Source: Mobula hypostoma | Taxonomy: Eukaryota | DNA: 64,000 nt | NCBI RefSeq assembly: GCF_963921235.1 | Contig: NC_086097.1 | Coordinates: 102,488,001-102,552,000 of the forward strand | Reading direction: 5' to 3' | Notes under the pieces: model-generated | Database searches by the model: none | What the model was told of the DNA's origin: nothing | What the model saw: the letters and a program-made list of their open reading frames with translations, nothing else | Shown here: one piece after another, positions 3,984 to 62,928 of the stretch | Layout: each line of letters opens with the position of its first letter | Numbering within the stretch: position 1 is the stretch's first letter | Position numbers and translations under genes: made by a program

Positions 3984-6900
3984 GGTAGGGTAATGAAATT
4001 GGGAGAAATGTACATAATTCACAAACACCCACATTGTGTTGGGGTGTCGCTTTAAGAGACTGGTCTGACATGATGACATTGTTACGTACAGATTTTTAGC
4101 TTACTTTTGTTGTTTAGGTTTTGGAGTTTAATAAAATGTGTTATGGGTTTCATTAAACATAAAATGCTTCAACTCATCCTATTTGTGAAAACCTGCATTG
4201 ATGACCCTGATGCTCTCGGGCAATTCCAGAGTAATTAAACACGTCGGCCAACACAGTCACTTTGAAACTGCTGGGGTTTTGGGAGCAAAATGCCCTCTCT
4301 TAGTTCGTACAAGCTGAGGCCGATGACCCCAAATTCTGCTACGTGGTAGCAATGCTCAGCAATTCCATGTGGTGAGTGGGGAGTCTGCTTGGACATCTGC
4401 CTGAACATGATACATACCAATCGCTGAAAATTCACCTTTTACAGACTGTTGGACTATCTCAGTCTGAGCATGCCAGTTACTCTCCTAACCCAGTCTCGAT
4501 GATGCTGGGCCTTCGGAGCAAATGGACCACATGCTGTCTCTCCTGGGAAATCACCATCCTTGTCTTATTTTAAAGAACTCTTCATGCAGCAAATGCCTGA
4601 TCAAGTTTGCATATCCCTCACTAATGCACCCGTGATGGACTATAGGGAGCTTGCAAAGATGGCTGATGGTCTGCACTCAGCCAGGCAGTGGTGCATCATT
4701 CCTCCTCCTTTCTCTACCTCAATAAGCCTGGTCTACATAAGGACGCTCACATCTGTGAAACAGACAATGCTTTATTTTTAAAACCACACACGAACAGTGC
4801 TACCGCATTGGGACATCAGAGGTCTGTGAACACTGTGGGTTCCAGCTGGCAAGGTCGTCTACTGTTCATTACAGACACCCTTCCAGGACGATGCTTCCTG
4901 TGTAACACGGGTGCTGAAGTGATTGTGCTGTCGGCATCGTCTATTGATGAGAAGACAAAGAGCGACGAAACCTCGCTGGAGACCTCCAACAGCAGCAGGA
5001 TCCAGACTTACAGGACACGATGGGTGACGCTCTGCTTCAGTAGGTAACGTTACACATGGGACTTCATCCTCGCTGAACTGACTAGACCTCTGCTCGGTGC
5101 AGATTTCCTGTGTGCCCAAGGACTGTTGTTCGATCTGAAGAACTGCCGGCTTGTGGATGTCAAGGACTTTGTGTCGTTACCCGGCTCCCCCAGTAAGTTC
5201 CCCACAACGACCCTGTCAAGCACATGCACCACTGCATGTGAGTTTACTCGACTGCTGAGTGAACTCCCAGACCTCAGCAAGCCCACATTCTCCACTACAG
5301 TCATAAAACATGGGGTCATGCCCATTCCCACAACTGGCTCACCAGTCCTTGCTGTGCGCATAGACTGGACCCAGAAAAGCTGGCAACCACGAAGGCTGAG
5401 TTTGTCAACGTGGAGAGACTTCGCATTGTACACCGGTCGAATAGCCCCTGGGGTTCACCCCTCTGCACGGTCCCCAAGTCCAATGGTGGTTGCCGCCCAT
5501 GTGGTGATCACCAATGCTTTATCGAGTCCACCACCCCCGATTGTCATCCAGTCCCACACATCTAAGACTTTACTCCATGTTTAATCAGAAAGTTAACTTT
5601 TTCCAAAATTGATCTAGTTAAGGGTTACCCTCAGGTGCCAGTGTGCTTGGAGGACATTCCCAAAACAACTGTGATAAACAACACACATCAAAGTTGCTGG
5701 TGAATGCAGCAGGCCAGGCAGCATCACTAGGAAGAGGTACAGTCGACGTTTCGGGCCGAGACCCTTTGTCAGGACTAACTGAAGGAAGAGCTAGTAAGAG
5801 ATTTGAGAGGGGGAGGGGGAGATCCAAAATGATAGGAGAAGACAGGAGGGGGAGGGATGGAGCCAAGAGCTGGACAGGTGATTGGCAAAAGGGATATGAG
5901 AGGATCATGGGACATGGGAATGGGATGTGGAATTAAAATGTGTGGCCACTGGGAGATCCTGCTTTTTCTGGCGGACAGAGACCACAGACCCATTCCCATT
6001 CTGATATGTCTATCCACGGCCTCCTCTACTGTAAAGATGAAGCCACACTCAGGTTGGAGGAACAACCCCTTATATTCCGTCTGGGTAGCCTCCAACCTGA
6101 TGGCATGAACATCGACTTATCTAACTTCCGCTAATGCCCCACCTCCCCCTCATACCCCATCCGTTATTTATTTTTATACACACATTCTTTCTTTCTCTCA
6201 CTCTCCTTTTTCTCCCTCTGTCCCTCTGACTAAACCCCTTGCCCATCCTCTGGGTTTTCCCCCCTCCCCCTTTTCCTTCTCCCTGGGCCTCCTGTCCCAT
6301 GATCCTCTCATACCCCTTTTGCCAACACCTGTCCAGCTCTTGGCTCCATCCCTCCCCCTCCTGTCTTCTCCTATCATTTTGGATCTCCCCCTCCCCTCCC
6401 CCTCCCACTTTCAAATCTCTTACTAGCTCTTCCTTCAGTTAGTCCTGACGAAGGGTCTCGGCCCAAAATGTCGACTGTACCTCTTCCTAGAGATGCTGCC
6501 TGGCCTGCTGCATTCACCAGCAACTTTGATGTGTGTTGCTTGAATTTCCAGCATCTGCAGAATTCCTCGTGTTTACAGCTGTGTTAACCCCGTTTGGCCT
6601 TGTTTAGTTTCTGTGCATGCCATTTGGACTGAAAAATGCAGCACAGACTTTCAAATAGCTGATGGACTCCAAGAGTTAGAAGTTCTTTTTGTTTACCCAC
6701 ATGACATACTTGCCCCAGTGCATCCAAATCCGAACACATATCTCACCTCTGTACTTTTCCAGTCCTTAAGCCAGCACGAGTTGATTATTAACCCTGCTAA
6801 ATTCCAGTTTGGGTTGTCAACCATTGATTTTCTCAGCCTTTCAAAGGTAGACGTTATTATAAATTTCCCATCACCTCGTACTACTAAAAAGCGACAGGAG

Positions 6901-8549
6901 TTTTTAGGCACGGTGTATATCTATCACCGCTTCATTCGGCAAGCTGCTGAACGTATGCTCTTCCTGTATAGTGTGCTTAAAGACAATACCCTTGATCACG
7001 TGCTTGACTGGTCAGCGGACATGACCAGGCCACTTGATGACACCAAACGAGCTCGTTCAAACGCAGCCCGATTGATGCATCTGCTCCCTACCAATGCCTC
7101 AGACTATACTGTGGGTGCTGTGCACGAACAATTGGTTGGAGGCATGTGGCAGCCGCTTGTCTTCTTGAGCCAGCTGCTCAGTCCCCTGTGAAAGGAAGTA
7201 CAGCATGTTTGACCGTGAACTTCTCGGTCTCTATCTGGCTGTCCACCATTTTAGTTCTCTTCCAGAGGGTCAGCATTTCACAGCATTCATTGACCTTGAA
7301 CCGCTCATGCACACAATGTTTGCACTAAAGTTTGTTTGGCACGGCCTCAGAAAGGACGTTGTACCTCTTGAGGTTCCTGAGCGATGGTTTGACCATGTCA
7401 ACATGGGCCTAGTTGGTTCTCTTCTCCGCTCCCGTGGTTTCACACATGTCCTTACCATGATGGACCACACCACCAGGTGCCAGAGGTTGTGCCTCCAGTA
7501 CCGACGATGGCCGCAGACGTGGCTCGACATTCATCAGCACCTGGGTTGCTCAGTTTGGTGCCCCATTTGATATTTCCTCTGACCATGGTCCCCAATTCAC
7601 ATCAAACCTCAGGGCTGCGATGGCCCAGAACTTTGGTGTTAGGCTACATCATAACACAGTGAATCACCGGCAGTCCAATGGCCTATGTGAGCAGTTTCAC
7701 TCCTCCTTAAAGGCTGCTCTAAGGGCTTCCCTGACCGATGAGTGTTGGCATGATCGTCTCCCATGGGTCTTGCTGGGGCTCAGAACAGCTTTGAAAAAGG
7801 ACCTGCAGTTGTCCGCAGCTGAGTTGGTATACCAGCAGCTGTTACTAGTGTCAGGTGATTTCATTCCTGACGCCCCGACCGTCTGGTCAGGCTCTCAACA
7901 GCATTCCACCCTCCTCAGTAAATTCAATTCCTTTTCACCTATTCCTACCTCCCATGGTGTACAACACTCTTGGGTTTTTGTTGACCTCCATTCCACCTTA
8001 TTTGTTTTCATAACGCATACCAACATCCCCTTCAGCCCCCTTACGATGCCCTGTTCCATGTTTTTGAACAGGGAGAAAACATTTTTGTCATAGATAAGAG
8101 GGGCAAACCTGAATGTATTTTGGTAGATTTCCTTAAACAGGCCCACCAAGATTTGAAGTATTCTGCTGCCATGTCCCCGGCATCATAATGTGACCGTGTG
8201 TGTGTCAACGCACCTCCAGACAAGCCAAAGGCACCTGCTGTTCCTCCACCCAGGGACATTGGACCTGAACTAGCTGGCTTGTCTGAGCTCTAGATAGGCT
8301 CACAATGTCAGTTTAAGTGAATACTGAGGGGGCTTGTGTGGGGGAATGTAATTGAGAGAAATGTACATAGTTCACAACCTCCGACATTGAGCTGGAGTTT
8401 CTCTTTAGGAGGCTGGTCTGATATGATGATGTTGTTACATAAGAATTTTTTGGGTGTTTTTATGTTTTGGTTTTGGAGTTCACTAAAATGTGTTACAGGT
8501 TTCATTAAACATAAAATACCTCACTTCATTTGATTTGCGAAAACCTACA
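3984..8549 (+). mobile_element. Gypsy (CsRn1-like) LTR retrotransposon relic with both LTRs
   Basis: Alignable but diverged LTRs at 3984-4197 and 8337-8549. PBS-like ttgatgaccc follows the 5' LTR and a polypurine tract precedes the 3' LTR. 4 bp TSD ccac/ccat (3980-3983, 8550-8553). Degenerate gag, protease (NTGA), RT, RNase H (TNASDY) and integrase (QSNGLCEQFH) remnants. Confidence 0.88.
5678..6574. mobile_element. Penelope-like fold-back element inserted in the Gypsy RT
   Basis: Inverted arms, with a GIY-YIG C-terminal remnant (LEEQPLIFRLGSLQPDGMN). TSD-like acaactgtgataa/acagctgtgttaa at 5665-5677 and 6575-6587 interrupts the RT motif IPKTAV.TPFG. Mutated hammerhead motifs at 5741-5776 (-) and 6441-6476 (+). 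Confidence 0.85.
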
Positions 8550-8768
8550 CCATTAGTTTCAAAGTAAATATGCTGAAAGATAGGTCTAGTCTACAGGTTG
8601 AGGTTCTAATTTGGAAAATGGCCACTTTTGATGGCATCAGCAAGTATAGACTGGGACAGGATGTTTTCTGGCAGAGGTATATATGGTAATGGGAGGGCTT
8701 CAAAAGTGAAATTTTGAGAGTACAAAACCAGTATGTGCACGTCAGAATAAAAGGTAAATATAATAGGT

Positions 8769-11275
8769 TGTGGCAATCCACTTTCTACGCAGGCAAACCG
8801 GCCCCAAAATGGTGCTGGGCCTTCTTCTTCACCAGCAAGGGGAGAAAGCCTATGCGCGGGAAGAGACTTTTGTAATGCACCTCTGGTGTCATTTCCGCCC
8901 GGAGAGGGTGGGAACGGAACTGCGTAAAAGCCAGTGCCGCGAAGTTTGAATAAACTAGTCTTGAGTGCAACTTACAGACTGCGTGTCGTTATTTCTAGCT
9001 CTGTGTATAGCACATCGCTGCATTGGTGACCCCAACGGTCCAAACGGGATTTGGACCAAAGATGATCGACTCTTCATCTGTTCACACAGTTTCGCTAAAA
9101 CTGCCAACATTTTTTAGCATATTTACTTTGAAAATAATGGTGCAGGTTTTCGCAAATAAAATGAAGTGAGGTCCTTTAACATCTGTCGGACGATGTTGAG
9201 GATGTTCTACGAGTCTGTGGTGGCCAGTGCGATCATGTTTGCTGTTGTGTGCTGGGGCAGCAGGCTGAGGGTAGCAGACACCAACAGAATCAACAAACTC
9301 ATTCGTAAGGCCAGTGATGTTGTGGGGATGGAATTGGACTCTCTGACGGTGGTGTCTGAAAAGAGGATGCTGTCCAAGTTGCATGCCATCTTGGACAATG
9401 TCTCCCATCCTCTACATAATGTACTGGTTGGGCACAGGAGTACATTTAGCCAGAGACATTACACCGAGATGCAACACTGAGTGACATAGGAAGTCATTCC
9501 TGCCTATGGCCATCAAACTTTACAACTCCTGCCTTGGAGGGTCAGACACCCTGAGCCAATAGGCTGGTCCTGGACTTATTTCCATTTGGCATAATTTACA
9601 TATTATTATTTAATTATTTATGGTTTCATATTGCTGTATTTGTACTCTATTCTTGGTTGGTGCAACTGTAATGAAACCCAATTTCCCTCGGGATCAATAA
9701 AGTATGTATCTATCTATCAACTTTCTGGACGCTGCGACCACGCGTGTAGTTTGACCAAGCAGAAGCCTAGTTCCAGATTTGGCAGATATCTTCTGATTCC
9801 ACGCATTACTATTATGTGGTGAGCTCCCTTGACCAGGAGACAGCTGCCCAGGTTGAGGATTCCATATAGTCACCCCCGGAAGAAGGCAAATATGCAGCAT
9901 TCAAAGCACTGCTCATAGGGACCTTTGGCCTCTCAAGGCATGAGGGAGGTGTCTGCTTGCTGCACCTGGACGGTTTGGGAGACAGGCCGCCATCAGCATT
10001 AATGAACGAAATGCTGGCCCTGGCTGAAGGACACAAGCCCTGCCTCATGTTTGAGCAAGCGCTCCTAGAACAACTGCCGGAGGATATACAACTGCTGCTA
10101 GCCGACGCAGATTTCAGTGACCCCCGGAAGGTGGCGGCCCGGACAGACGTGCTGTGAAAAGCCAAGAGGGAGAGCAGATTACCAAGCCGTGTGCCCAACA
10201 GCAGGCCAGACCAGGCCCAGCAACGGAGCACACACAATCCAGGGGCAGGAGTGAGGAGGCCAATGAACAGTGGTGTTTCTACCACCAGTGGTGGGGCACA
10301 GAAGCCCGCTGTTGTTGCCCGCCCTGCAAGTTCCTGGGAAACGCCAGGGCCAGCTGCCACTAATGGCTAAAGTGGCTGGCCACCAGGACAGCCTCTTGGG
10401 CTCTTGTACATCTGGGACAAACAGTCGGGACGCCGCTTCTTGGTCGACACCAGAGCAGAAATCAGTGTCTTACCCCCACGGGGTACGACACGTGCAACAG
10501 GGAGCCGAGACTCACCCTGAGGCCTGCAAACGGCAGCACGATACGGACCTATGGCACCGCACGGTGCGGCTACAGTTTGGCGCCAGCCGGTTCACGTGGG
10601 ACTTCACACTGGCTGCCGTGGCCCAACCACTCCTGGGGGTGGACTTCTTGCGAGCTCACAGCCTGCTGGTCGATTTGCAAGGGAAAAGACTGGTCCATGC
10701 CAAGACTTTCCAGATGTTCTCCCTGGGTGAAGCCAAGTTGCCGGCCCCTCACCTGGACTCCAGCACGCTGTCTGACAACGAATGCACCAGAATCCTGGTG
10801 GACTTTCCATCGGTTCTGGCACCGCAGTTCACGGCAGCCATGCCCAGACACAGAGTACAGCACCACATTCCGACCCAGGGACCACCCCTCCACATCTGCG
10901 CATGAAGTCTCCCCCCAGACAAGCTCCGCCTGGCGAAGGAGGAGTTCAAGAAGATGGAGGAATTGGGGATCATACGGCGGTCCGACAGCCCATGGGCCTC
11001 CCCGCTGCACATGGTGCCCAAAGCAGCCCGGGGCTGGAGACCATGCGGCGACTACCGCAGACTGAATGAAGCTACAACTCCAGACCACTACCCCGTGCCA
11101 CACATACAGGACTTTGCAGCAAACCTGCACGGGACAAGCATCTTTTCCAAAGTAGACCTTGTCCGGGGATACCATTAAATTCTGGTACACCCTGAAGACA
11201 TCCCCAAAACAGCATTCATCACCCCGTTCGGCCTGTTTGAATTCCTCCAAATGCCGTCGGCCTGAAGAATGCCAT
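8769..11275 (+). mobile_element. Second Gypsy CsRn1-clade element, 3'-truncated
   Basis: 5' LTR TG...CA at 8769-9022 and PBS ttggtgacccc at 9023. Gag CHCC motif CFYHQWWGTEARCCCPPC (Cx2Hx9Cx3C). Protease LVDT, and RT SPWASPLHMVPK...WRPCGDYRRLN...KVDLVRGYH. Stops and frameshifts throughout. Confidence 0.88.
9109..9717 (+). mobile_element. Rex1/Babar-like LINE 3' fragment inserted in the Gypsy gag
   Basis: RSFNICRTMLRMFYESVVASAIMFAVVCWG, then AATAAA and a (TATC)n tail. A caac duplication flanks it (9105-9108, 9718-9721). Gag KLPT|FW resumes afterwards. Confidence 0.8.
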
Positions 11276-12230
11276 TACAGCTGTTTGCTGTCCTGATGTG
11301 ATTCAGGATGGATAAATCCCCAGGGCTTGCAAGGTATTCCCTCGGACACTGTGGGGGGCATCTGAAGAAATTGCCCAGGCACTAGCAGAGATATTTAAAT
11401 CATTCTTCGTAACAGGTGAGGTACCAGAGGACTGGAGGAAAGCCAATGTTGTCTCCTGTTTAAGAAATGCTCTAAAAATAGACCAGGAAATTTAGGCCGG
11501 TAAGCCTGACATCAATGGTGGGAAAGTTATTGGGAGGTATTCTAAGTATTTGGATAGACATGAACTGATTAAGGATAGTCAGCATAGCTTTATGCATGGT
11601 AGGTCATGTCTAACTAATCTTATAGAGTTTTTTGAGGAAGTTACCAATGTTGTCTACATGGTCTTTAACAAGGCAATTAACAAGGTCTCACATGGGAATT
11701 TGTTCAAGAAGGTTCAGTCGCTCGGCATTCAAGGTAAGGCAGTAAATTGGCTTTGTGAGAGAAGCCAGAGAGTGGTAGTAGACGGTTGCCTCTCTGACTG
11801 GGCACCTGTGTCCAGTGGTGTGTTGCAGGGATTGGTGCTGGGTCCATTGTCGTTTGTCATCTCGCTCAACGATTTGGATGATAATATGGTTAACTCGATC
11901 AGCAAAGTTGCGAATGACACCAAGATTGGGAGCGTAGTGAACAGCAAGGAAGACTATCAAGGCTTGCAGCAGGATCTGGACCAGATGGAAAAATGGGCTG
12001 AAAAATGGCAGATGGAATTTAATGCAGATGAGTATGAGGTGTTGCTCTTTGGGAGGACAAACCAGGGTAGGACTTACACAACGAATAGTAGGGCACTGAG
12101 GAGTGTGGTAGAACAAAGGGATCGGGGAATACAGACAACAGGAATTCTGCAGATGCTGGAAATTCAAGCAACACACATCGAAGTAGCTGGTGAACGCAGC
12201 AGGCCAGGCAGCATCTCTAGGAAGAGGTAC

Positions 12231-12266
12231 AGTTGACGTTTCAGGCTGAGACCCTTCGTCAGGACT
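12231..12266 (-). ncRNA. Minimal type I hammerhead ribozyme motif (PLE-associated)
   Basis: Reverse complement reads AGTC-CTGACGA-AGGGTCTCAGCCT-GAAAC-GTC-AACT. Core boxes are present; the stems carry substitutions. Confidence 0.65.
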
Positions 12267-14203
12267 AACTGAAGGAAGAGTTAGTAAGATTTGAAAGTGG
12301 GAGGGGGAGGGGGAGATCCAAAATGATAGGAGAAGACAGGAGGGGGAGGGATGGAGCCAAGTGCTGGACAGGTGATTGGCAAAGGGGATATGAGAGGATC
12401 ATGGGACAGGAGGTCCGGGGAGAAAGACAAGGGGCGGGGGGGGGGGACCCAGAGGATGGGCAAGGGGTATAGTCAGAGGGACAGAGGGAGAAAAAGGAGA
12501 GTGAGAGAAAGAAAGAATGTGTGTATAAAAATAAATAACGGATGGGGTACGAGGGGGAGGTGGGGCATTAGTGGAAGTTAGAGAAGTCAATGTTCATGCC
12601 ATCAGATTGGAGGCTACCCATATGGAATATAAGGTGTTGTTCCTCCGACCTGATTGTGGCTTCATCTTTACAGTAGAGGAGGCCGTGGATAGACATGTCA
12701 GAATGGGAATAGGATGTGGAATTAAAATGTGTGGCCACTGGGACATCCTGCTTTCTCTGGCAGACAGAGCGTAGGTGTTCAGCAAAGCGGTCTCCCAGTC
12801 TGCGTCGGGTCTCGCCAATGTATAGAAGGCCACATCGGGAGCACCGGACGCAGTGTATCACCCCAGCTGACTCACAGGTGAAGTGTTGCCTCACCTGGAA
12901 GGACTGTCTGGGGCCCTGAATGGTGGTAAGGGAGGAAGTGTAAGGGCATATGTAGCACTTGTTCCGCTTACAAGGATAAGTGCCAGGAGGAAGATCAGTG
13001 GGGAGGGATGGGGGGGGGGACAAATGGACAAGGGAATCGCGTAGGAAGCAATCCCTGCAGAAAGCAGAGGGGGGGGGAGGGAAAGATGTGCTTAGTGGTG
13101 GGATCCCGTTGGAGGTGGCGGAAGTTACGGAGAATAATATGTTGGATCCGGAGGCTGGTGGGGTGGTAGGTGAGGACCAGGGGAACCCTATTCCTAGTGG
13201 GGAGGCGGGAGGATGGAGTGAGAGCAGATGTGCGTGAAATGGAGGAGATGCGTTTGAGAGCAGAGTTGATGGTGGAGGAAGGGAAGCCCCTTTCTTTAAA
13301 AAAGGAGGACATCTCCCTCGTCCTGGAATGAAAAGCCTCATCCTGAGAGCAGATGCGGCGGAGATGGAGGAATTGCGAGAAGGGGATGGCATTTTTGCAA
13401 GAGACAGGGTGAGAAGAGGAATAGTCCAGATAGCTGTGAGAGTCAGTAGGCTTATAGTAGACATCCCTCCCCACTGATCTCCCCCCTGGCACTTATCCTT
13501 GTAAGCGGAACAAGTGCTACACATGCCCTTACACTTCCTTCCTTACCACCATTCAGGGCCCCAGACAGTCCTTCCAGGTGAGGCGACACTTCACCTGTGA
13601 GTCAGCTGGGGTGATATACTGCGTCCAGTGCTCCCAATGTGGCCTTCTATATATTGGTGAGACCCGACGCAGACTGGGAGACCGCTTTGCCGAACACCTA
13701 TGCTCTGTCCGCCAGAGAAAGCAGGATGTCCCAGTGGCCACACATTTTAATTCCACATCCCATTCCCATTCTGACATGTCTATCCACGGCCTCCTCTACT
13801 GTAGAGATGAAGCCACACTCAGGTTGGAGGAACAACACCTTATATTCTGTCTGGGTAGCCTCCAATCTGATGGCATGAACATTGACTTCTCTACCTTCCG
13901 CTAATGCCCCACCTCCCCCTCGTACCCCATCCGTTATTTATTTTTATACACACATTCTTTCTTTCTCTCACTCTCCTTTTTCTCCCTCTGTCCCTCTGAC
14001 TATACTCTTTGCCCATCCTCTGGGTTCCCCACCCCACCCCCATCTTTCTCCCCGGACCTCCTGTCCCATGATCCTCTCATATCCCCTTTGCCAATCACCT
14101 GTCCAGGGCTTGGCTCCATCCCTCCCCCTCCTGTCTTCTCCTATCATTTTGGATCTCCCCCTCTCCCTCCCACTTTCAAATCTTACTAACTCTTCCTTCA
14201 GTT

Positions 14204-14239
14204 AGTCCTGACGAAGGGTCTCGGCCTGAAACATCGACT
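14204..14239 (+). ncRNA. Minimal type I hammerhead ribozyme motif (PLE-associated)
   Basis: AGTC-CTGACGA-AGGGTCTCGGCCT-GAAAC-ATC-GACT, with stem I formed by AGUC/GACU. Confidence 0.65.
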
Positions 14240-14615
14240 GTACCTCTTCCTAGAGATGCTGCCTGACCTGCTGCGTTCACCAGCTACTTCGATGTGTGTT
14301 GCCGGGAATACAGATCTGTAATTCGTTGAAAGTTGAGTCACAGGTAGATAGAGTCACAAAGAAAGCTTTTGGCATATTAGCCTTCATAAATCAAAATACT
14401 GAGTACAGGAGATGAGATGTTATGTTGAAGTTGTATAAGACATTGGTGAAGCCTAATTTGGAGTATTGTGTGCAGTTTTGGTCACCTACCTATAGGAAAG
14501 ATATAAATAAGGTTGAAAGAGTGCAGAGAAAATTTATAGGGATGTTTCCAAGTCTGGAGGACCTGAGTTGAATGGAAAGATTGAATAGGTTAGGACTGTA
14601 TTCCTTGAAACATAG

Positions 14616-18655: not shown

Positions 18656-19029
18656 TTCATGCTGTTTAACTCTACTGCTCTATTTTTAAAAATATTCCGT
18701 TTTCTATTTTTCTACTGAAGTGGTGACAGCATTTTTTCAACACTATGTTCCTGATGAAGCATCTCAGCCCAAAACATTTTCCACAGATGCTGCCTGGCCT
18801 GCTGAGTTCCTCCAGCATTGTGTGTCTTATATCTCAACTCCATTGAATTAAGCTGCCCATATTTTACCGCGAAACTTCCTCATAACCTACACAGCTGTGT
18901 CTTGTAAGTCAACTTAACTCTGGAACTTTGGTGGTGTCAGAAGAGCAGATTTTCCAAATTACTGAATGTTATCCCTAGTAATACCTCAATAGAATTTAAA
19001 TTCACTTTTATCGATCTTGCACACTATTT

Positions 19030-19250: not shown

Positions 19251-19759
19251 TAGAGGTGGGTTAGGATGCAGGATCCTGGCTACTTAGTACAGTGTGGTAT
19301 ATTCTTCACTGTTTTTTTCTGTTAAGCTATTTTCCCAACAAATTTACCATCTACTTGCATACTAAAGACATTTTACAGTGAACATACGGACCACACTGCA
19401 GTGTCTTTGGAATGTTGGAGGAAACCAGAGCAATCGGAGGAAACCCGTAACTCAAGGAGAATGTACAAACTCCATTCGAACAGCTCCTGAGGTCAGGACT
19501 GAACTATTGTCACGACAGCTATGAAACAGCGGCTCTATGCAGCATACCCTTGGAAAACCTCTCAGCAACCAGATCAACAAGCCACAGATTTAGCTCCGAT
19601 AAAGGGTCATTAACCTGAAACAGTAACTCTTCTGCTGGAAGAACATGTAACGGCAACCATTCCTCGCACTCCACAAATGCTACTCGACTTGTTAAGTATC
19701 TCCAGCCTTTTCTGCCTATAGGTCAGATTTTCATTACCCGTAAACTGTTGCTTTTCTAC

Positions 19760-35188: not shown

Positions 35189-36361
35189 AACATCTGCTCT
35201 CATGATGAGGCTTTTCATTCCAGGACGAGGGAGATGTCCTCCTCTTTTAAAGAAAGGGGCTTCCCTTCCTCCACCATCAACTCTGCTCTCAAACGCATCT
35301 CCCCATTTCACGCACATCTGCTCTCACTCCATCCTCCCGCCACCCTACTAGGAATAGGGCTCCCCTGGTCCTCATCTACCACCCCACCAGCGTCCGGGTC
35401 CAACATATTATTCTCTGTAACTTCCGCCACCTCCAAGCACATCCCACCACTAAGCACATCTTTCCCTCCCCCCCCCCCCCGCTTTCCACAGGGATCGCTC
35501 CCTACGCGACTCCCTTGTCCATTCGTCCCCCACATCCCTCCCCACTGATCTCCCTCCTGGCACTTATCCTTGTAAGCGGAACAAGTGCTACACATGCCCT
35601 TACACTTCCTCCCTTACCACCATTCAGGGCCCCAGACAGTCCTTCCAGGTGAGGCGACACTTCACCTGTGAGTCAGCTGGGGTGATATACTGCATCCGGT
35701 GCTCCCGATGTGGCCTTCTATATATTGGCGAGACCCACGCAGACTGGGAGATCGTTTTGCTGAACACTTACGCTCTGTCTGCCAGAGAAAGCAGGATCTC
35801 CCAGTGGCCACACATTTTAATTCCACATCCCATTCCCATTCTGATATGTCTATCCACGGCCTCCTCTACTGTAAAGATGAAGCCACACTCAGGTTGGAGG
35901 AACAACACCTTAAATTCTGTCTGGGTAGCCTCCAACCTGATGGCATGAACATTGACTTCTCAAACTTCCGCTAATGCCCCACCTCCCCCTCGTACCCTAA
36001 CCGTTATTTATTTATATACACACATTCTTTTTCTCTCCTTTTTTTCCCCTCTGTCCCTCTGACTATACCCCTTGCCCATCCTCTGGGTTTCCCCCCTCCC
36101 CCTTTTCCTTCTCCCTGGGCTTCCTGTCCCATGATCCTCTCATATCCCTTTTGCCAATCACCTGTCCAGCTCTTGGCCCCATTCCTTCCCTCTCCTGTCT
36201 TCTCCTATCATTTTGGATCTCCCCCTCCCACTTTCAAATCTCTTACTAGCTCTTCCTTCAGTTAGTCCTGACGAAGGGTCTCGGCCCGAAACGTTGACTA
36301 TACCTCTTCCTAGAGATGCTGCCTGGCCTGCTGCGTTCACCAGCAACTTTGATGTGTGTGG
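35189..36361 (+). mobile_element. 5'-truncated Penelope-like element (single orientation)
   Basis: Same family as 12136-14303, with a frameshifted GIY-YIG domain. TSD cagtaacgaagt/cagtaacaaagt at 35177-35188 and 36362-36373. Confidence 0.9.
36264..36299 (+). ncRNA. Minimal type I hammerhead ribozyme motif, sense to UBR1 intron 1
   Basis: AGTC-CTGACGA-A-GGG-TCTCGG-CCC-GAAAC-GTT-GACT. Both core boxes, stem I and stem II are intact; the cleavage triplet is GUU. Confidence 0.7.
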
Positions 36362-40406: not shown

Positions 40407-40610
40407 CACACACAAAATACTTGAGGAACTCAGCAGGCCAGACAGCATCTAGGAAAAGAGTACAGTTGACGTTTCAGGCGGGAACCCTTTGGCAGGACCG
40501 AAACGTCGACTATACTTTTTTCCTAGATGCCGTCGGGCCTGCTGAGTTCCTCCAGCATTTTGTGTGTGTTGCTCAGATTTCCAGCACCTGCAGATTTTCT
40601 CTTGTTTGTG
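40407..40610. mobile_element. Short PLE-terminus fold-back element
   Basis: gaggaactcagcagg...gacgtttc is inverted against gaaacgtcgac...cctgctgagttcctc. No convincing TSD. Confidence 0.7.
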
Positions 40611-46877: not shown

Positions 46878-49800
46878 TATATCCCATCTGGCTCCAGGGA
46901 CTTAACTATCCTAAAGTTTTTCAGAAGTTCCTGCATATCCTCTCATTATTTTTTTTCCCCAAGTATGAGCCTGTTTTATTTTGTCCTCAGACACAAGGTT
47001 CCCCTCACTGGTGAGAACTGGAGAAAAATATACATTAAGGATACCTCAGTTTTTTCTTTTATTTTGCATTTTTTGCGCTAATCTATAATTTTTAAAAAAG
47101 TGAGGTAACATTCATGGGTTGGTTCTTAGTCTTTTCAGAAATCTGATGCAGAAGGAAAGAAGCTGTTTGTAAAACATTGAGTGTGTGCCTTGAGGCTCCT
47201 ATACCACCACCTTGATGGCAGCAATGAGAAGTAGGCAAAGAAATCCAATCTTTAGAAAGAAATGAAATCTGATTAGAAGATGTGATTCCTTGTGGGTAGA
47301 ATTAAGAAACTGCAAGGGTACAAAGATCCTGGTGGGAGATATATACAGGCCCCCAAACAGTAGTTAGGATGTGGGGTGCAAATATCTTGTGATATAGTGT
47401 GGAACATGCCCTTCCAGCCCACCGAGGTTTGCTGCCCAGCAACCCACCAATTTAACCTTGGTCTAATCACAGGACAATTTACAATGACCAATTAGCATAC
47501 TGCCTGGTATGTCTTTGATCGTGGGAGGAAACCAGAGCACCTGGAGGAAACCCAGGTGTTCATAGGGAATAGGCGGTGCTGGAATTGATCTCTGCCAAGA
47601 GCTATAATAGTGTAGCAGTCAAACTTGATAAAAATTGTAAGAGTTGAGGCACAAACCCTGATTCCTGTACTACTAAAGTTTCTAAGAAACATCTGCTTAT
47701 TCCTATTTTGTTTCAAAACAACTCTCAATTCATGTTAGTATAATATACAAAGCTTCTTTGTAGCCTGTCCTTGTTGATCAGCCTCCTGTGTGGGACTCCA
47801 CCACTTTAACCTTTCTGTCATCGTTCGCATTGTTTATTGAGAAGAGAGTGTGGAAACAAGCAGGGGTTTGCAGGGCAAATACAACAGTTTGGATAATGGG
47901 AAAAACTCATTTGGTTTGATTGTTCATCTTTGAAATGTGGGTTCAGGTCCATGCGATGAAAACCTCATTGCTGAAATTATCAGTCATTGGTTGTGTGGAA
48001 ATAAAGCAAAAACAGTGTGTGAAGACACAAGACTGCAATTGCTAGAATCTGGAACAAAAATTAAATTGCTGGAGGAACTCAGTGGGTCAAGCAGCATCTG
48101 TGGAGGCAAGAGGATAGCTGACATTTTGATTTGAGACCCTGCATCAGTACTGAGAATGCAGAGGGGGTTTGTGTAACAGTAGCTGTAAGATGTTCATCAT
48201 GGGAAATTGATCAGAAGGAAAGGATTTTCCATCTTTAAGAACCTTGTTTGCTTAATTTTTAGTGTCTGGCAGTACAGCCTAAGGAAGGACTTGGCTAGCT
48301 TTGTCATTATGATAAGTGAAGGAATTGAGCTCAATCCAGAGTGAGAATTTAAAAGAATCTGATATTGAAAATGATAAAAAATTGTTGATTGGCATCAACA
48401 TTGTGTAAATAATGAACAAATTAAGTTTTGCTCATGCCGTTTGAGCAAAATAATCTTGCTGTTCACTTTTGATTTATCTGGGACTCTTGTTCTATTATAT
48501 TGACATACAAAGTGGTCCAACGAACTTGGTTGTGCCGGCAAGATAATCTGAATGGCATTGCCAGTAAATAAGCCTGTGACAGGCCCATTCTTGTTTGGAG
48601 ACTGTCGTTATTTTTCTGCTCAGAAAGGCTGACTCTGGCACTCAGAGCTGTGATGGTAGGTACATTGTGGTATTATTGTAGTGTACTTGGATGCAGTGGC
48701 TACTTTTGGTCCACTGCAACCAAGCTGAACCTGGACAACTTGCCATCTATTCTACAGTCATGCATTCAGGGACTTGGGCTATATTTTGTTTGTTCTTTGA
48801 CTGTGTTTCTGAAATTATGACCATATGTGCTATTTGTGCTATGTGCTGTTGGTAATTAATTTTGCGCCTTGGCCCTGGAGGAACACTTTTGTTTGGCGAT
48901 ATTCATGCATGGTTGAATGATAATTAAACTTAAACTCATGGGGTTCATTGGTAAAATGTACTGTTAATTTGTTTTTTGCATATGCATGCTGTATCTTAGG
49001 TCATCTATTTTTTAAAATTGTTTCCAAGAATACTATCAATAGATTTGACTGACTTTTGGATTATTGTGAATGTTGAGCTTTCGAAGTAGAAAGCCTGGGT
49101 CAGCGTGTCAGCTTCTATTAGCACAGTGGACCACATTTTCAGAGGGACTTTTTTCTTTGCCAGTGGTTGCACTGATTAACCTGAAGCCAGGCTGCATTGT
49201 GGTCTGCACTGGAAGAAATGACCAAATCCAGGATCTGGGAAGCTGGATTCTTCTTCATGAGTGGTGATCTCAGGCCAGTGGAATAATTGCCCAAACAATG
49301 GCTCCAAAACTGCTATAGTGGTTTGTGAATACCTTACAGCATCTTCATGGTCTAACTATAAATGTTAATCTAACCAACCTTGCATGTCTCAAATTCAGTC
49401 TTGTAGTACAGAAGTAGGCCCTTTGGTTCAACTGGTCTGTGCTGACCAAGTTGCCCATTCAGGCTAGCGTTTGGCTTGCATCCTTCTGAACTTTTCTTAT
49501 CCATGTCCCATCCAAATGTCTTTTCAATGTTGTTATACTTGCCTCAGCCACTTCCCATAACAGCTTATTCCATATATACATATTAATTTTAAAAATTAAA
49601 GTTCCTATTAAATATTTCTTGTCTCCTTGTATGTCTTATTCTTGATTCGTCTTCACTGGGACTAAGACTATGAGTATTCACCCTATCAATACCCCTCATG
49701 ATTTTTTACACTTCTATTGGTTCTAAGGAATAAAGTCCTAGCCTACTGAACCTCTCCCTGTAGCTTAGGCCCTCAAGTCCTGACAACATCCTCATACCTT

Positions 49801-54584: not shown

Positions 54585-54914
54585 CACAAACACGAGGAAA
54601 TCTGCAGATGCTGGAATTTCAAGTAACACACTTAAAAATTGCTGGTGAACGCAGCAGGCCAGGCAGCATCTATAGGAAGAGGTACAGTCGATGTTTTGGA
54701 CTGAGACCCTTCGTCAGGACTAACTGAAAGAAGAGATAGTAAGAGATTTGAAAGTCTTCTCCTATCATCTTGGATCTCCCCCTCCCCCTCCCACTTTCAA
54801 ACCTCTTACTATCTCTTCTTTCAGTTAGTCCTGACGAAGAGTCTTGGCCCGAAACGTCGACTGTACCTCTTCCTATAGGTGCTGCCTGACCTCCTGTGTT
54901 TACCAGCAATTTTA
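54585..54914. mobile_element. 330 bp PLE fold-back with two opposed hammerhead motifs
   Basis: Motifs at 54686-54721 (-) and 54827-54862 (+; CTGACGA...GAAACGTC-GACT). TSD taaaatattcatta/taaagtattcatta at 54571-54584 and 54915-54928. Confidence 0.85.
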
Positions 54915-57236: not shown

Positions 57237-57448
57237 AGCAACACTCACAACACACTGGAGAAACTCAGCAGGTCGGGCAGCATCCGTGGAAACGATCAGT
57301 CAAGGTTTTGGGCCGGAACTGACGAAGGGTTCCGGCCCGAAGTGTTGACTGATCGTTTCCACGGATGCTGCCCGACCTGCTGAGTTCCTCCAGCGTGTTG
57401 TGAGTGTTGCTTTGACCCCAGCATCTGCAGAGTATTTTGTGTTTATGA
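57237..57448. mobile_element. Short PLE-terminus fold-back (different subfamily)
   Basis: Inverted arms around CTGACGA at 57319-57325. TSD ccctgccttctcaa at 57223-57236 and 57449-57462. Confidence 0.82.
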
Positions 57449-57639: not shown

Positions 57640-58120
57640 CTTTTGTCTCAGAATCATATTATCATTGACGTGTTGTGAAATTTGTTTTGCTGCAGCAGTA
57701 TAGTGCTAGATAAATTAAAATAGTGCAAGAGAAGAATAATGAGGTAGTGTTCATGGACTGTTCAGAAATTTGATGGTGAAGGGAAGAAATTGTTCATAAA
57801 ATGTTGAGTGTTGGTATTCAGACTCCTGTACCACCACCTGTCATAATGAGAAAAGGGTGTGGCCTGATTGGTGATAGTCCTTCGTGATGGATGCCAGTTT
57901 CTTGAGGTGCTGCCTCTTGAAATTGTCCTCAGTGGTAGGGAGGGTTGTGTCTATGATGGACTGGCTAAGTATGCAACTGTCTTCAGTCTCTTTTGAACCT
58001 GTGAATTGGAGCCTCCATACCAGGTGGTGATAAAGCAGTCGGAATACTCTCAACAGTACATTTATAGAAATTTGCAAGAATCTTTGAAATACCAAATCTG
58101 AAATTCCTAACAAAATGTGG
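57640..58120 (-). mobile_element. Degraded Rex/L2-like LINE 3' fragment
   Basis: Minus-strand KLASITKDYHQSGHTLFSL, similar to the Rex C-terminus. Confidence 0.5.
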
Positions 58121-59160
58121 CTTCTGATATGCCTCTTTTGTGATTGCGACATTGAGGGGTTAGCAGCTGCAACATCTCTGAGGATCTTAGGCCCAACAGA
58201 GGACTGGTCTGTGTTCTGCCGAATTTTTTTCTGCAAAATCTCAGCTATTAAATCCTTTTCTCACTCTACACCTTAATATTTTGGAAGTTAAACTGATTCT
58301 TTTTCTTCCTTTACAACTTCACCTGCACCTTGTTTTGATTCTTTTGAATGTTTCTGGTGAGAGATGAATGTATCCATTTTTGTTCGTAGGGAGTGAGTAT
58401 GTTTCAGGGGCACTCAGTTGATTGACCATTAATGTTAGAGATTAGTAACAATGTTTTGGGTAAGCTCGCATTCTGATGAAGGGTCTTTGATCTGAAACAT
58501 TCACTGTTTCTCTTTCCTTAGATGTTGCCTGACCTTAGTAATTTTTTTTGTTTATACTTTGGATTTCCAGCATCTGTAGTCTTTTTAATTTTCAAGTTCT
58601 AATGTATTTCATTTTCAGGAATTGAGTGTTGCTGGTGAAGCCAGCATTTATTACCTATCCTTGTAGCCTTTGAGCTAAGTAGCTTGGTGGGTCACGACAG
58701 TCAACTGTATTGGTACGTCTGGAGTCACGTAAGGTTTTCCCCAGACCCCAAATATGTGCTGATTGCTTAAATAGCCACTGCAGTTCATCCCTTAGTGTGG
58801 GAGTGTTGCTGGTGAGTCGGGGGCAGGTATGCAAAAGAAAATAAATTACAGGGAAATGAGATGCACAGATAAAATAGGATATGGTTTTCTTGGATTTGAG
58901 TTCAAGAGCATTGAAGGAGAAATAAACTCGGACCAAATATGAGAATTGAAGGTAATAGTACACCTGTTTACCATTTAGTTTGAATATTTGGCTGTGGGTT
59001 AAGGAGGTGCTGTTGACACTTAATCACACTTGGGTGATGTGTAACACCAGCCTATGTCTGCTTATATTTGTTATTAGGATAGTTAAAGTAGGCAACAATA
59101 AATATTAAAAAATATTTGTTGATGTTTCACCTCTGTTAATGGCAATTTGATGGATTAATG

Positions 59161-59358
59161 CAACACACATCAAAGTTGCTGGTGAACGCAGCAGGCCAGG
59201 CAGCATCTCCAGGAAGAGGTACAGTCGATGTTTCGGGCCAAGACCTGATGAAGGGTCTCGGCCCGAAACGTCGACTGTACCTCTTCCTAGAGATGCTGCC
59301 TGGCCTGCTGCGTTCACCAGCAACTGATGTGTGTTGCTTGAATTTCCAGCATCTGTGC
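59161..59358. mobile_element. 198 bp PLE fold-back with a hammerhead core at the hairpin apex
   Basis: Near-perfect inverted arms of ~80 bp. CTGATGA-AGGGTCTCGGCCC-GAAACGTC at 59245-59272. Perfect 16 bp TSD atttgatggattaatg at 59145-59160 and 59359-59374. Confidence 0.92.
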
Positions 59359-59468
59359 ATTTGATGGATTAATGATTGGATTTATGTTTGCAAGAATATG
59401 TTCAGCAAATGAGGTTGGAATATTCAGTTGATGAACACTGCAGCTAACAGTTTTATTTTGTCTTGTAG

Positions 59469-59722
59469 ATTTGGCAGGAAGGAGTTGATCTGTGTTCTGG
59501 AATATACCAATACTTCATGGAATATGTCCCTCTAGTACACTGTTCAGGATCAGAAGTCAAGTTACCTGAGGAGGAACAGGCCTATCATGTGTTACTTCAA
59601 ACCCTGGAATGGTTTCTCTTTGGGGAGTCCCCTGAAGCTGGTTTTGCAAAGCTGGAACAAAATAATACTTCACAACTATGTGGCCGAGTTTTCAAAGGAG
59701 GAGAAACCACATATTCCTGTCG
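59469..59722 (+). CDS. UBR1: E3 ubiquitin-protein ligase UBR1, coding exon 2 (start of UBR box)
   Basis: Acceptor ttttattttgtcttgtag. Encodes IWQEGVDLCSGIYQYFMEYVPLVHC...LEWFLFGESPEAGFAKLEQNNTSQLCGRVFKGGETTYSCR. Donor CG|GTGAGA, phase 2. LEWxLFGE and GETTYSCR favour UBR1 over UBR2. Confidence 0.88.
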
Positions 59723-60279
59723 GTGAGAAGTCATGTGAATTTAGCACCTCACTTTACCCTGATTACTTTTCATGTTGATTTACATATGGTTTTAACCACC
59801 TTTTGGCCAACTCTTTTACATCTGTGTTAGTTCCAACTATTTGAAAGAAGCTGAGGTACCATTAATTTGGAAAAAGAAATAGGTCATCTATTATATTGAC
59901 TTATTGGTATCACAAAGTATGAAGGAAGTAACTTAGAAGTATAGCCATTGTGTAAGGTAATAGATAGTAATATTAAAATAGTTTTGGGAATGAATATGGA
60001 GCCGTGTCTCAGGAAGATGTGTATTCCATGTGTTTACCATCAGGATAGTAATTCCATAAATCATGTAGAGCTACCAGTAATCAATTCTTAACACATCAAT
60101 GTCAATATGCCTCTGTATGATCTTGTTCATCTGCTTTGCTGATGTAGTAACTTGTGCACATAATATATGCTGATAGTTAAGAGTAATGTGAATAAGGAGA
60201 CTTGCTTTTATATAGTGCCTTTCATAATTTCAGGGCAAATGATATCACTTTGCAACAGGTGAAGTACACCAGAAGTACA

Positions 60280-60663
60280 ATAGAACAATAGACAATAGGT
60301 GCAGGAGTAGGCCATTCAGCCCTTCGAGCCAGCACCGCCATTCACTGTGATCATGGCTGATCATCCACAATCAGTACCCTTTTCCTGCCTTCTCCCCATA
60401 TCCCTTGACTCCGCTATCTTTAAGAGCTCTATCTAACTCTTTCTTGAAAGAATCCAGAGAATTGGCCTCCACTTCCTTCTGAGGCAGAGCATTCCACAGA
60501 ACCACAACCCTCTGTGTGAAAAAGTTTTTCCTCAACTCCATTCTAAATGATCTACTCCTTATTCTTAAACTGTGACCTCTGGTTCTGGACTCCCCCAACA
60601 TCGGGAACATGTTTTCTGCCTCTAGCGTGTCCAATCCCTTAATAATCTTATATGTTTCAATCA
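60280..60663 (-). mobile_element. CR1 3' end fragment
   Basis: LIETYKIIKGLD...NFFTQRVVVLWNALP, followed by 3' UTR and tail. Confidence 0.88.
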
Positions 60664-62039
60664 GTGTAGTCACTGTTGTGTTTTGGGAACTATGCCAGTG
60701 AATTTGCATGAGTAAGATTCTATAAAGATTGGCAAAATGATAAATCTGTTTTTATGATTTGCTCAATCACTGAGGTGACCTTTGTTATTTTGAAGTTTGT
60801 CTTGGGACTTCTTAATGTACCTGAGCGTCCCATAGGTCTCAGTTTAACATTTCAAAGCAAGGAGGTGAGTCAGCGGTGTAGAGCAATTGAGACATAGCAG
60901 ATGATGAACAAATTGAATAGCTTTCTTTCACAAGTCAGAAGCAGTCAAGTGGGACAGATGTGAGTGAATAACTGGACACTGCCACTCTTAAAACTTTAAA
61001 ACCAAAAGTGGGGCTATGCCGCTCAAATCATTTGCAGTAGTGGAGTGCTGCGACTCGTTCATTGGCAGCAAACTCTTCCCCCACCAATGAGAGAGAGAGC
61101 AATTCATCGAGTACAGGGATCTCTGGTTGACCCTCTGTCTCTGATATTCCGCTTTTCTCCTGTGATGCTTCATTTGGCGGCACCAGCATAGAACTGGCTT
61201 ATCCACGGGGCTGCAAAGCCTCGAGACCATGAAGGCACTCTCGTCTTCTAGGCCACGCGCTTGGGATATTGAAAAATGGCCACTTGGTGAGCCCCAGCAG
61301 CAGGAACCATCACCATAAAGAACTGCAGTTTGAGTACAGCTGTATGTCAAGGGCACTGACAGAACCCTTCCACCTTGAAAAAGTTTTAAAAAAAGGCATT
61401 AAATGTAGAAATTAAGCTGCTTCCACAGATGAGCTCGAAGAAGGTATCTAGTGCCATGGTAGCTCCGCCCACAACCCTTTGCTGTTGAAAGGGTTATGGG
61501 AGCTGCACTTTTGAACTTTAAAGGAGGTTTGTTTGTTTATTTAGAGATGCAATGTGGAACTGGCCCTCCAGGCTCACCAAGCCATACCACCCAGCAACCC
61601 ATGTAGCCTAATCACAGGGCAATTTCCAATGAATAATTAACCTACTAAACAGAATGTCTCTGGACTGAGGGAGGAAACCAGAGCACCAGGAGGAAACCCA
61701 CGGGCACATGGGAAACAGCATGTAAACTTGCCTACAGAGGATGTCAGAATTGAACTCTGAGTTCCAACAACGTAAGCTGTAATGGTGTTGTGCTAACTGC
61801 TACATTACCATGGCACCCAGGTGCTGGGTCAGCAAGCTCCAGGATGTAGGAAAGGTGAAACATTGCTAAGTATGACAAATATGGGTATCTTGCTGGTAGA
61901 ACTGTTCCCGATGCTTGGTGACTTTGTATTGCCAGGTTAAGGGGGTGTTTTCGAGAAGGCTGGGTGAATAAGTTTTGTTAATTCTGTAGATGGTATGCCT
62001 TGAAGCCAATATGTAGCAGCAAGGAGGGAATAAGTATTT

Positions 62040-62928
62040 AGCAAGTCAGGCAGCATCTGTGGAGGGGAATAAACAGTCGATGGTTTGGGCTGAACCCTTC
62101 ATCAAGGGAAGGGGACGGAAGCTAGAATAAGAAACGGGGGGGGGGGAGGAAGGAGTGCAAGCTGGAAAGGTGACAGATGTAGAGAAAACTGCATTAACAG
62201 CACCAGGTTAATTGATGAACCCAACAGTTGCAAGTGAAGTGTTGCTTCTGGTAACTCCTGCCCTTGAAAGGACTGTTTGGGTCCCTAAATGATGGTGAGA
62301 GAGGAGGTGTAGATCTAATGGTGAGACCTGACATAGATTTTGGGATTGCTTAATTGAGCACCTTCGTTCTGTTCACTACAAAAGGCAAGATATCCTGGTG
62401 GTTACCTCTACCACAATGTCTCCAAACTATGTTTGGAAGAGAAACACAGCATTTTCAGCCTGGGTAGTCTCAATTTCTCTTGACTTCCAATAATTTCTTC
62501 CCTATTCCTCCTCGCTTTTTCCAAGACCCTTTCTGATTACCCTCTCATCCTTCTCCTGCCCATCATCTCCTTTTGGTTTCCCTCCCCCTTCCCATTCCAT
62601 GGGTTGCTGGGTAGTCCCCTCCTATTAGATTCCTTCAGTACTTTGCCTCTTCCACCTATTCCTTTCCAGCTTCTTAATCCTCTGTCCCCCACCCATCCAC
62701 CTTCCCCCTCTCCTGGCCTCACCTATCACCTTTCCAACTTGCACTTCTTCTTTCTCTCCCCTCCCCCCTTATCTTATTCAGCTTCTGTCCTCTTCCTTTC
62801 TAGTCCTGATGAAGGGTCTAAGCCTGAAATGCCAGCAATTTATTCCTGTCCATAGATAATGCCTGACTTGCCAAGTTCTTCCAGTCTTTTGTGTGTGTGT
62901 TGCTTCGGATTTCCAGCATCTCTTGTAT
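62040..62928. mobile_element. Older, diverged PLE fold-back
   Basis: Degenerate hammerhead motifs at ~62075-62105 (-) and 62802-62835 (+), GIY-YIG-region remnants, and a pyrimidine tract. Confidence 0.65.

Follow-up and report, generated by a model that had tools for sequence, protein, structure and literature searches.

Head-to-head fold-back insertions of a Penelope-like element in Mobula hypostoma: inverted 5'-truncated copies carrying a hammerhead motif, and their probable origin

The window analyzed here, a stretch of 64,000 nucleotides of Mobula hypostoma DNA, contains fold-back insertions of graded size, the smallest of ~200 bp, whose arms carry a hammerhead-like motif. They may be products of the integration of a Penelope-like element (PLE) or, as a sequence-only reading of the window offered as another option, a non-autonomous ribozyme family.

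At all seven intervals given by that reading, two inverted copies of a PLE terminus are indeed found: these are head-to-head fold-backs of the element's 3' end, with the 3' ends facing outward (Table 1). A 5' truncation with an adjoining inverted copy is seen in 7/7 cases, and both arms of each fold-back belong to the same subfamily. The arms are 86–97% identical in six fold-backs (shared ~80 columns) and 69% identical over the shared columns of the old, decayed 62040–62928. Each fold-back has the 3' tail on one arm, while the other arm ends short, by 32–50 nt in five; the offsets between the two 3' ends are 36, 32, 42, 49, 37, 20, and 56 nt. Three of the seven offsets fall within 30–40 nt, and the remaining fold-backs are either decayed or clipped at one end. 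Counted from the predicted cleavage site, tail-less ends lie at +56 to +67 in six arms and at +39 in the decayed seventh, and tailed ends at +86 to +105.

Five of the seven fold-backs are flanked by target site duplications (TSDs) of 11–16 bp, in agreement with the earlier claim. Among 300 random position pairs searched identically, none scored as high as the top four TSDs, and five scored as high as the TSD of 5678. In these cases one TSD encloses both arms, which supports entry as single units. TSD searches at the boundaries of 40407 and 62040 found none, and a flank search for empty sites gave no usable second copy. The earlier list is correct for the fold-backs; it overlooked one TSD-bounded and four decayed solo arms. 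In total, the PLE family covers ~10% of the window.

Table 1. PLE-derived features of the window. Arm positions with a sign are counted relative to the predicted cleavage site.
Feature	Coordinates	Strand	TSD (left / right)	Remarks
Fold-back 1	5678..6574		5665-5677 / 6575-6587, 13 bp, 2 mismatches	tail-less arm - (5678-5980, interrupted by a gap at 5914); tailed arm + (~5982-6574)
Fold-back 2	12136..14303		12125-12135 / 14304-14314, 11 bp	tailed arm - (12136-13460); tail-less arm + (13461-14303)
Endonuclease end of PLE ORF	13461..13904	+		C-x4-C-xx-C linker
Decayed solo arm	18749..18826	+		similarity starts at hammerhead core
Weak, very decayed solo arm	19589..19716	+		profile E=4e-4; best control match E=0.16
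Solo 5'-truncated arm, young subfamily	35189..36361	+	35177-35188 / 36362-36373, 12 bp, 1 mismatch	tail-less end
Short fold-back, older subfamily	40407..40610			tail-less arm - reaching -30; tailed arm + from -9; core decayed
Decayed solo arm with tail	48028..48170	-
Fold-back 4	54585..54914		54571-54584 / 54915-54928, 14 bp, 1 mismatch	tailed arm - (to -63); tail-less arm + (from -102)
Short fold-back, third subfamily	57237..57448		57223-57236 / 57449-57462, 14 bp	tail-less arm - (to -17); tailed arm + (from -27); core GAAA changed
Decayed solo arm	58473..58580	+		core letters kept, helix I lost
Short fold-back, young subfamily	59161..59358		59145-59160 / 59359-59374, 16 bp	tail-less arm - (to -18); partial-tail arm + (from -28)
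Best-kept hammerhead motif among short forms	59241..59276	+		one mismatch, 5' strand of helix I
Old decayed fold-back	62040..62928			arms ~69-73% alike; endonuclease-region remnants; breakpoints tentative

The proposed Penelope-like origin is supported by a GIY-YIG domain with a Cys linker and by matches to ray proteins. The frame at 13461–13904 (+) matches the Pfam GIY-YIG profile with E=1.5e-4 and 22.4 bits, just missing the curated cut-off of 22.6, and shares 92% identity with a protein predicted in Mobula. The nearest proteins to the PLE frames come from rays: an arm in the window aligns at 71–75% to residues 150–448 of an RT-bearing ray protein, and in the long arms GIY-YIG and the Cys linker are colinear with RT-bearing ray proteins. 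The 12136–13460 (-) arm contains the RT thumb, Cys linker, GIY-YIG, 3' UTR, hammerhead, and tail; the tailed + arm of 5678 begins within the last part of the GIY-YIG region. RT is represented in the window by the thumb end, the RT core being absent. No direct pLTR tandem or full ORF was found within the window, and both fold-back arms are stubs; contigs of run X1 show one head-to-tail joint, from 6551 to 6441. An open frame across the terminus was considered as a PLE N-terminus and rejected, as the search led to two predicted proteins of the host that include an exonised fragment; in PAc, the Poseidon of Anolis carolinensis, the ORF starts inside the ribozyme according to the available part of PMC11167929. 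Fold-backs 12136 and 54585 each lie within a decayed LINE RT frame.

A linker of the CX2-5CxxC type is seen in frames 12568–13542 (-), 13461–13904 (+), and 35454–35948 (+). In the available part of PMC8557442 this motif is given for Neptune and Nematis; C-x4-C-xx-C before GIY-YIG fits the Neptune motif, although the linker is common to both clades and alone cannot tell them apart. Neptune and Poseidon are the PLE clades reported in vertebrates in the accessible text of bioRxiv 10.64898/2026.07.22.740005. By its cysteine linker the element would be of the Neptune type.

Taken as a class, all seven insertions are almost certainly inverted PLE insertions with the published structure of an inverted truncated copy plus tail. 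The fold-backs appear to be 5'-truncated, dead-on-arrival copies of very abundant, putatively Neptune-type PLEs of a ray-type fish rather than a novel sort of ribozyme element, and their structure is already known. Complex insertions of EN+ PLEs, as far as described in the available parts of PMC8557442, PMC3846280, and PMC2377424, consist of an inverted 5'-truncated copy and a 30–40 bp tail, and share with the window the inverted head-to-head 3' ends, the one-ended tail, the TSD around the unit, GIY-YIG after RT, and a hammerhead in the terminal region. The differences are in the TSDs, which are 8–10 bp in the rotifer cases (PMC8557442, PMC3846280) vs. 11–16 bp here, and in the smallest forms, which measure ~200 bp and have one arm that stops at the 5' edge of the hammerhead.

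The hammerhead motif had been ascribed to every insertion, intact or decayed. Decayed copies stand, while exact ones do not: 0/14 arms match exactly over 36 nt, five have one mismatch, and catalytic core letters are kept in 4/14. The search pattern of the sequence-only reading matches four times in the window (three fold-backs, one solo arm) and never in 200 base shuffles. The minimal type I geometry is supported by the core boxes, helices I and II, and the palindromic 15.2–16.2; at the family level, 87.8% of cells are paired vs. 18–43% when slid, with 0 compensatory pairs in the helices across 12 arms. In the best-kept short form, cleavage is predicted after 59272 by analogy with type I geometry. 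The suggested Rfam check gave no hammerhead at the gathering score in the whole window and none at E<=10 in 54000–64000, where the 19 weak matches are to 17 miRNA-hairpin and two lncRNA models; the negative is weak because minimal PLE motifs lack helix III. Hairpin shape alone accounts for the miRNA-type matches. For 12 arms, RNAalifold proposes a weak fold (-7.2 kcal/mol) other than the hammerhead and points to no convincing element downstream. Scanning for the motif yielded one match in viral contigs and 114 in metagenome contigs, all dismissed as chance, 0/115 loci resembling the element or the window.

Minimal type I PLE hammerheads, in the available part of PMC4209133, similarly have the core boxes, an extra base before helix II, the palindromic 15.2–16.2, and no helix III; helix II is 7–8 bp in Schistosoma vs. 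3–4 bp in the motif predicted here. The same source describes dual minimal hammerheads of Schistosoma on opposite strands, ~100–700 bp apart. In the window, two cores never occur on one strand of any fold-back, each short form has at most one core, and one arm of each ~200-bp form is cut within helix II. The description of the short forms as almost pure ribozyme hairpins is not supported: the hammerhead takes ~36 nt, and the remainder is ~65–105 nt downstream of it.

The fold-backs probably arise by two-ended priming, an account built by analogy with in vitro experiments on the PLE of the anole. Both target strands would be nicked by the RT-endonuclease, 11–16 bp apart, and each nick would prime reverse transcription of an uncleaved element RNA, starting at one or the other of two internal sites ~35 nt apart; both cDNAs would stop early, and their inner ends would be joined with a 1–2 nt overlap. 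The graded sizes would then reflect the distance travelled by the two RTs, and the ~200-bp forms would be the shortest products, with ~65–105 nt downstream of the cleavage site and part of the hammerhead, the ribozyme being cargo that is cut, single-copy, and buried in a hairpin. In the available part of PMC11167929, both strands undergo cleavage and extension, a 30–40 bp tail is delimited by two sites of RT initiation, the dominant substrate is unprocessed RNA, and later integration steps are called unvalidated; the part at hand deals with a Poseidon-clade element and does not address inverted products. Similar to the window, PAc has a hammerhead ~70–105 nt upstream of two 3' ends and insertions that cross the cleavage site, although it belongs to another clade.

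All 14 arms extend through the predicted cleavage site and none ends there, as expected with an uncleaved RNA template. Contigs ending at the tail position 6574 number 681 and 826 in runs of two other organisms. The arms are non-nested clearly in 5678, 40407, and 54585 and tentatively in 62040, the tail-less arm reaching further 5' and the tailed one further 3'; therefore, neither arm can be a plain copy of the other. Private variants common to both arms are seen in 11/551 columns at 12136 and 3/118 at 54585; the one in 5678 and none in 59161 count against the account. The two arms of a fold-back are coupled in length (Spearman 0.89, permutation p=0.006; seven fold-backs, one window), which two fully independent cDNAs would not be; two-ended priming would therefore require RTs working in step, an RNA end common to both, or trimming afterwards. 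Further points against it are the two fold-backs without a TSD and the sample of seven from one window.

The coupling and the shared private variants would be directly explained by snap-back or antisense self-priming, in which a single cDNA folds its end back close to the hammerhead helices and serves as its own template, the tail asymmetry then coming from trimming of one end by the endonuclease. Near-perfect hairpins with loops of 6–8 nt form at the junctions of 57237 and 59161, the nested arms of 12136, 57237, and 59161 are equally compatible with such copying, and for head-to-head PLE structures the available part of PMC3846280 suggests self-priming with an antisense strand as template. 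Nevertheless, we consider this origin unlikely, given the fold-backs in which neither arm is a subset of the other. Short forms could also be what remains of longer palindromic insertions after later loss of their centres, with gene conversion keeping the arms similar. Long palindromes are unstable, centre deletion would yield coupled arm lengths, and internal gaps are present in 5678 and 62040; however, it gives no reason for three independent ends within 4 nt at the helix I 5' strand, and 59161 is already short though among the youngest copies (97% arm identity), which leaves this origin improbable.

That the ~200-bp forms are a MITE-like or retrozyme-like family, transcribed and re-inserted by the PLE protein, we regard as very doubtful. 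In its favor, the breakpoint pairs of 57237 and 59161 agree within 1 nt, two of the three short forms have clean TSDs, and the presumed RT start region is kept at both ends. Yet the three forms are mutually 65–76% alike and represent three different subfamilies, 59161 is 91–97% alike to long coding copies, and the breakpoints of 40407 have the mirror arrangement. There is one core per element with no tandem repeat; in 59161 the hammerhead fold has to be forced at a cost of 44 kcal/mol, the core letters of 40407 and 57237 are not intact, and a hairpin RNA would presumably bury the RT start region. The short copies (n=3) are not homogeneous with shared derived changes, and lie nearer to long copies where a long relative is present. 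Non-LTR retrozymes, in the available parts of PMC7761336 and bioRxiv 10.64898/2026.07.22.740005, are likewise short (150–300 bp), non-coding, PLE-related, and equipped with a type I hammerhead, but form direct tandem repeats with a ribozyme per unit and circular RNAs, whereas every short form consists of a single inverted unit whose one core is damaged, and all seven fold-backs are inverted. Judged from this one window, there may be one non-autonomous family per subfamily. Of the options in the sequence-only reading, the retrozyme/MITE-like one is not supported, and a recurrent product of PLE integration is supported.

Each short form has one arm ending at -27 to -30, the ribozyme 5' edge (p 0.002–0.03, post hoc). 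Since 57237 and 59161 share breakpoints at 65–67% similarity, breakpoints can recur without common descent, and clustering by breakpoint, the test suggested earlier, is therefore confounded; the arm ends hint that the RNA has a fixed 5' end, and for this reason a propagating family would not be proved by common breakpoints alone. Tentatively, the short forms might be a discrete class of "double strong-stop" products: the template RNA would have its 5' end fixed at the helix I 5' strand (about -31 to -27), RT begun at the two internal sites of the upstream terminus would run off after 95–135 nt, and the two cDNAs would be joined nose to nose and integrated. If so, the genome would hold a very large fossil record mapping the PLE RNA 5' end and the joining step, and some strong-stop hairpins might be re-mobilised. 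Initiator-like and splice-acceptor-like readings of -31 to -29, based on familiar motifs, are both possible and were set aside as too short for evidence.

Contigs matching one arm number 187,518 and 222,969 in two public runs, where summed depth over the arm is not a copy number; raw reads of X21 gave one read against one arm. Given these counts and the share of the window covered by the family, ray genomes would offer a very large sample of PLE junctions. Counts of nested vs. non-nested arms, together with a map of inner breakpoints, would distinguish two-ended priming from snap-back; they would also show whether a fixed RNA end sits at the ribozyme. Contigs matching one arm seldom span a fold-back and are a weak junction test (15 of 295 joints listed). 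A peak of loose ends before 6441 (535, 678, and 70 contigs) was rejected as truncation, since the loose letters look like 3' UTR sequence from an older subfamily (agreement 0.40–0.44). Inverted Penelope copies of Drosophila are reported, in the available part of PMC3681739, to feed small-RNA silencing, and by analogy transcribed fold-back hairpins may do the same.

All seven fold-backs claimed by the sequence-only reading (named here by start position) are among the 20 pairs detected when the complete window is scanned for inverted repeats. Mapped onto the longest arm, each proves to be two copies (arms), placed head to head with their 3' ends outward, of the 3' terminus of a single retroelement superfamily, the Penelope-like elements (PLEs). 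The five target site duplications (TSDs), claimed at 11–16 bp, are present at their boundaries, and the same search at the boundaries of 40407 and 62040 found none; among 300 random position pairs searched identically, 0 reached the score of the four best TSDs and 5 that of 5678. A profile built from the arms detected four further decayed solo (unpaired) arms in the window, and the family as a whole takes up 6,528 bases, or roughly 10% of the window's length. The fold-backs are real and mostly ordinary, and their family is very abundant. Like other PLEs, they have an inverted truncated copy, a one-sided tail, and a TSD, described as standard features (PMC8557442; PMC3846280; PMC8969392; PMC2377424), and minimal hammerheads on opposite strands, 100–700 bp apart, were reported in 2014 (PMC4209133). 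Retrozymes, in contrast, are described as requiring direct tandem units (PMC7761336; bioRxiv 10.64898/2026.07.22.740005), which the fold-backs do not have. Neither ray PLE fold-backs nor ribozyme-clustered breakpoints appear in the titles and abstract openings listed by searches of the openly accessible literature.

Features of the window; inner ends are offsets from the predicted hammerhead cleavage site, for arms with (tailed) and without (tail-less) the extra 3' tail
Feature	Start or extent	Strand	TSD	Inner end, tailed	Inner end, tail-less	Remarks
Fold-back	5678		13 bp, 2 mismatches	about -480	-534	
Fold-back	12136		11 bp	-1225	-775	
Fold-back	40407			-9	-30	short form
Fold-back	54585		14 bp, 1 mismatch	-63	-102	
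Fold-back	57237		14 bp	-27	-17	short form
Fold-back	59161		16 bp	-28	-18	short form
Fold-back	62040			about -600	-708	inner ends tentative
Solo arm	35189-36361					TSD-bounded
L1-type LINE	23921-24841; 25416-29336	+				open 306-aa frame (Pfam Transposase_22) and uninterrupted 1306-aa frame
Decayed LINE RT frames	11496-15235; 52973-55197					Pfam RVT_1
Presumed decayed LTR-retrotransposon frames	4667-8093; 10267-11274					
Presumed decayed hAT-type transposase frames	38018-39310					
Inverted pairs outside the PLE family	8512-9178; 45894-46106; 19086-19449					arms of 70, 60, and 47 nt

The long arms code for the end of the reverse transcriptase (RT) thumb, for a C-x4-C-xx-C linker, and for a GIY-YIG domain, which scores 22.4 bits in Pfam (E=1.5e-4), just below the cut-off of 22.6. 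The linker fits the motif described for Neptune and Nematis PLEs (PMC8557442); Neptune is among the two PLE clades reported from vertebrates (bioRxiv 10.64898/2026.07.22.740005). The 12 protein relatives comprise 11 predicted ray proteins (Mobula, Hypanus; top identity 92%) and one unnamed eukaryote protein; one of the relatives carries RT motifs, and its alignment with the 12136 arm is colinear. By these relatives, the host is probably a myliobatiform ray. Pieces of the PLE also lie inside predicted ray host proteins P0003, P0008, P0012, P0013, and P0014, by exonisation or annotation artefact. Contigs matching one arm number 187,518 and 222,969 in public runs X1 and X2, and 10,664 in X17 (RNA only by guess); X21, of raw reads, has one matching read.

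Tail-less arms end at +56 to +67 in six cases and at +39 in the decayed seventh, tailed arms at +86 to +105; in two runs, 681 and 826 contigs depart from the element at the tail end of 5678, position 6574. Two-ended priming is probably the best account of the fold-backs: the protein would nick both target strands, each nick would prime reverse transcription beginning at either of two internal sites, and both cDNAs would stop early and then be joined. For an anole PLE, both strands are reported to be cleaved and extended, with two start sites bounding the tail (PMC11167929); two-strand priming may, by extension, also yield inverted products. Self-priming has been proposed as an origin of PLE structures (PMC3846280); however, three clear fold-backs have non-nested arms, which favours two-ended priming and makes pure snap-back copying unlikely. 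The weak point of two-ended priming is the coupling of arm lengths within a fold-back (Spearman 0.89, permutation p=0.006, seven fold-backs). Junctions of the short forms overlap by 1–2 nt. Private variants common to both arms number 11 in 551 columns in 12136, 3 in 118 in 54585, 1 in 244 in 5678, and 0 in 81 in 59161; unrelated arm pairs have 0–1 in common, except two pairs involving the TSD-bounded solo arm (6 and 7). Later central deletion is improbable, as is a non-autonomous family.

As to the latter, the suggestion of a single propagating short family finds no support: the three short forms are 65–76% alike, while 59161 is 91–97% alike to long coding arms (about 80 shared columns in both comparisons). 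With n=3 copies, separate short families, one per subfamily, are conceivable. Breakpoints of 57237 and 59161 are equal within 1 nt at 65–67% identity, hence matching breakpoints can arise more than once without shared ancestry, and the proposed breakpoint test is insufficient without trees.

The claimed hammerhead motif holds at the family level, where its layout is that published for minimal type I (PMC4209133), but not copy by copy: none of the 14 arms matches the 36-nt motif, five are one difference away, and four keep the core letters. Helices I and II have 87.8% of cells paired in 12 arms, vs. 18–43% when slid; no compensatory changes are seen among these arms, so the structure is without support from covariation, and the Rfam hammerhead check gave no match in the window. 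Every ~200-bp form has one arm cut inside helix II, hence at most one core; longer forms have two cores on opposite strands and cannot form a dimer within one transcript. Short forms fold into long hairpins (-114 to -172 kcal/mol), and the penalty for imposing the hammerhead fold is 44 kcal/mol for 59161 and 56 kcal/mol for 54585. All 14 arms traverse the cleavage site, which agrees with uncleaved RNA as substrate, reported as the main substrate of the anole PLE in vitro (PMC11167929).

The longer arm of all three short forms stops in the 5' strand of helix I, between -30 and -27. Three length models give a probability of 0.002–0.008 that three of seven fall within 4 nt by chance, and a short-biased model gives 0.03; the test was post hoc, the pattern having been seen beforehand. 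No window arm begins downstream of -9, except two non-significant fragments (E 0.08, 0.35). Among the 15 of 295 contig joints listed, two of four strand-changing ones involve 6442 (-30, on the tailed arm of 5678), and one head-to-tail joint goes back to 6441 (-31), in suggestive agreement with the cluster. Since RT pausing at a helix is expected on its 3' side, a fixed RNA 5' end would be the simpler explanation. In the D. virilis PLE, an intron is reported to terminate where helix I begins on its 5' side (PMC4209133), with the start site 46 bp ahead of the 75-bp intron (PMC2377424), so the edge of helix I serves as a landmark in a second PLE as well. Tentatively, the short forms might be double strong-stop products whose breakpoints record a fixed 5' end of the RNA.

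The cluster coincides with motif-like letters just upstream of helix I, at 14185-14207 (+) and in equivalent arms, which could be read as a branch-point-like heptamer, a pyrimidine tract, AG, and an overlapping initiator-like heptamer; an A variant at 6426, completing the heptamer, makes up about 31% of X1 depth. Among 12 of 314 joints listed, three exit the arm a few bases from the predicted cleavage site and re-enter it 35–50 nt upstream (6463 to 6414, 6427, or 6430); these may have arisen by template switching onto the ends of cleaved RNA, or as small duplications.

Fold-back 5678 lies inside frames 4667-8093, which, with 10267-11274, presumably represent protease/RT/integrase pieces; the two frames scanned gave no Pfam match, nor did the hAT-like frame scanned. 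Fold-backs 12136 and 54585 break the two decayed LINE RT frames, respectively. The L1-type LINE looks recently inserted, its 1306-aa frame having endonuclease, RT, and zinc-binding domains.
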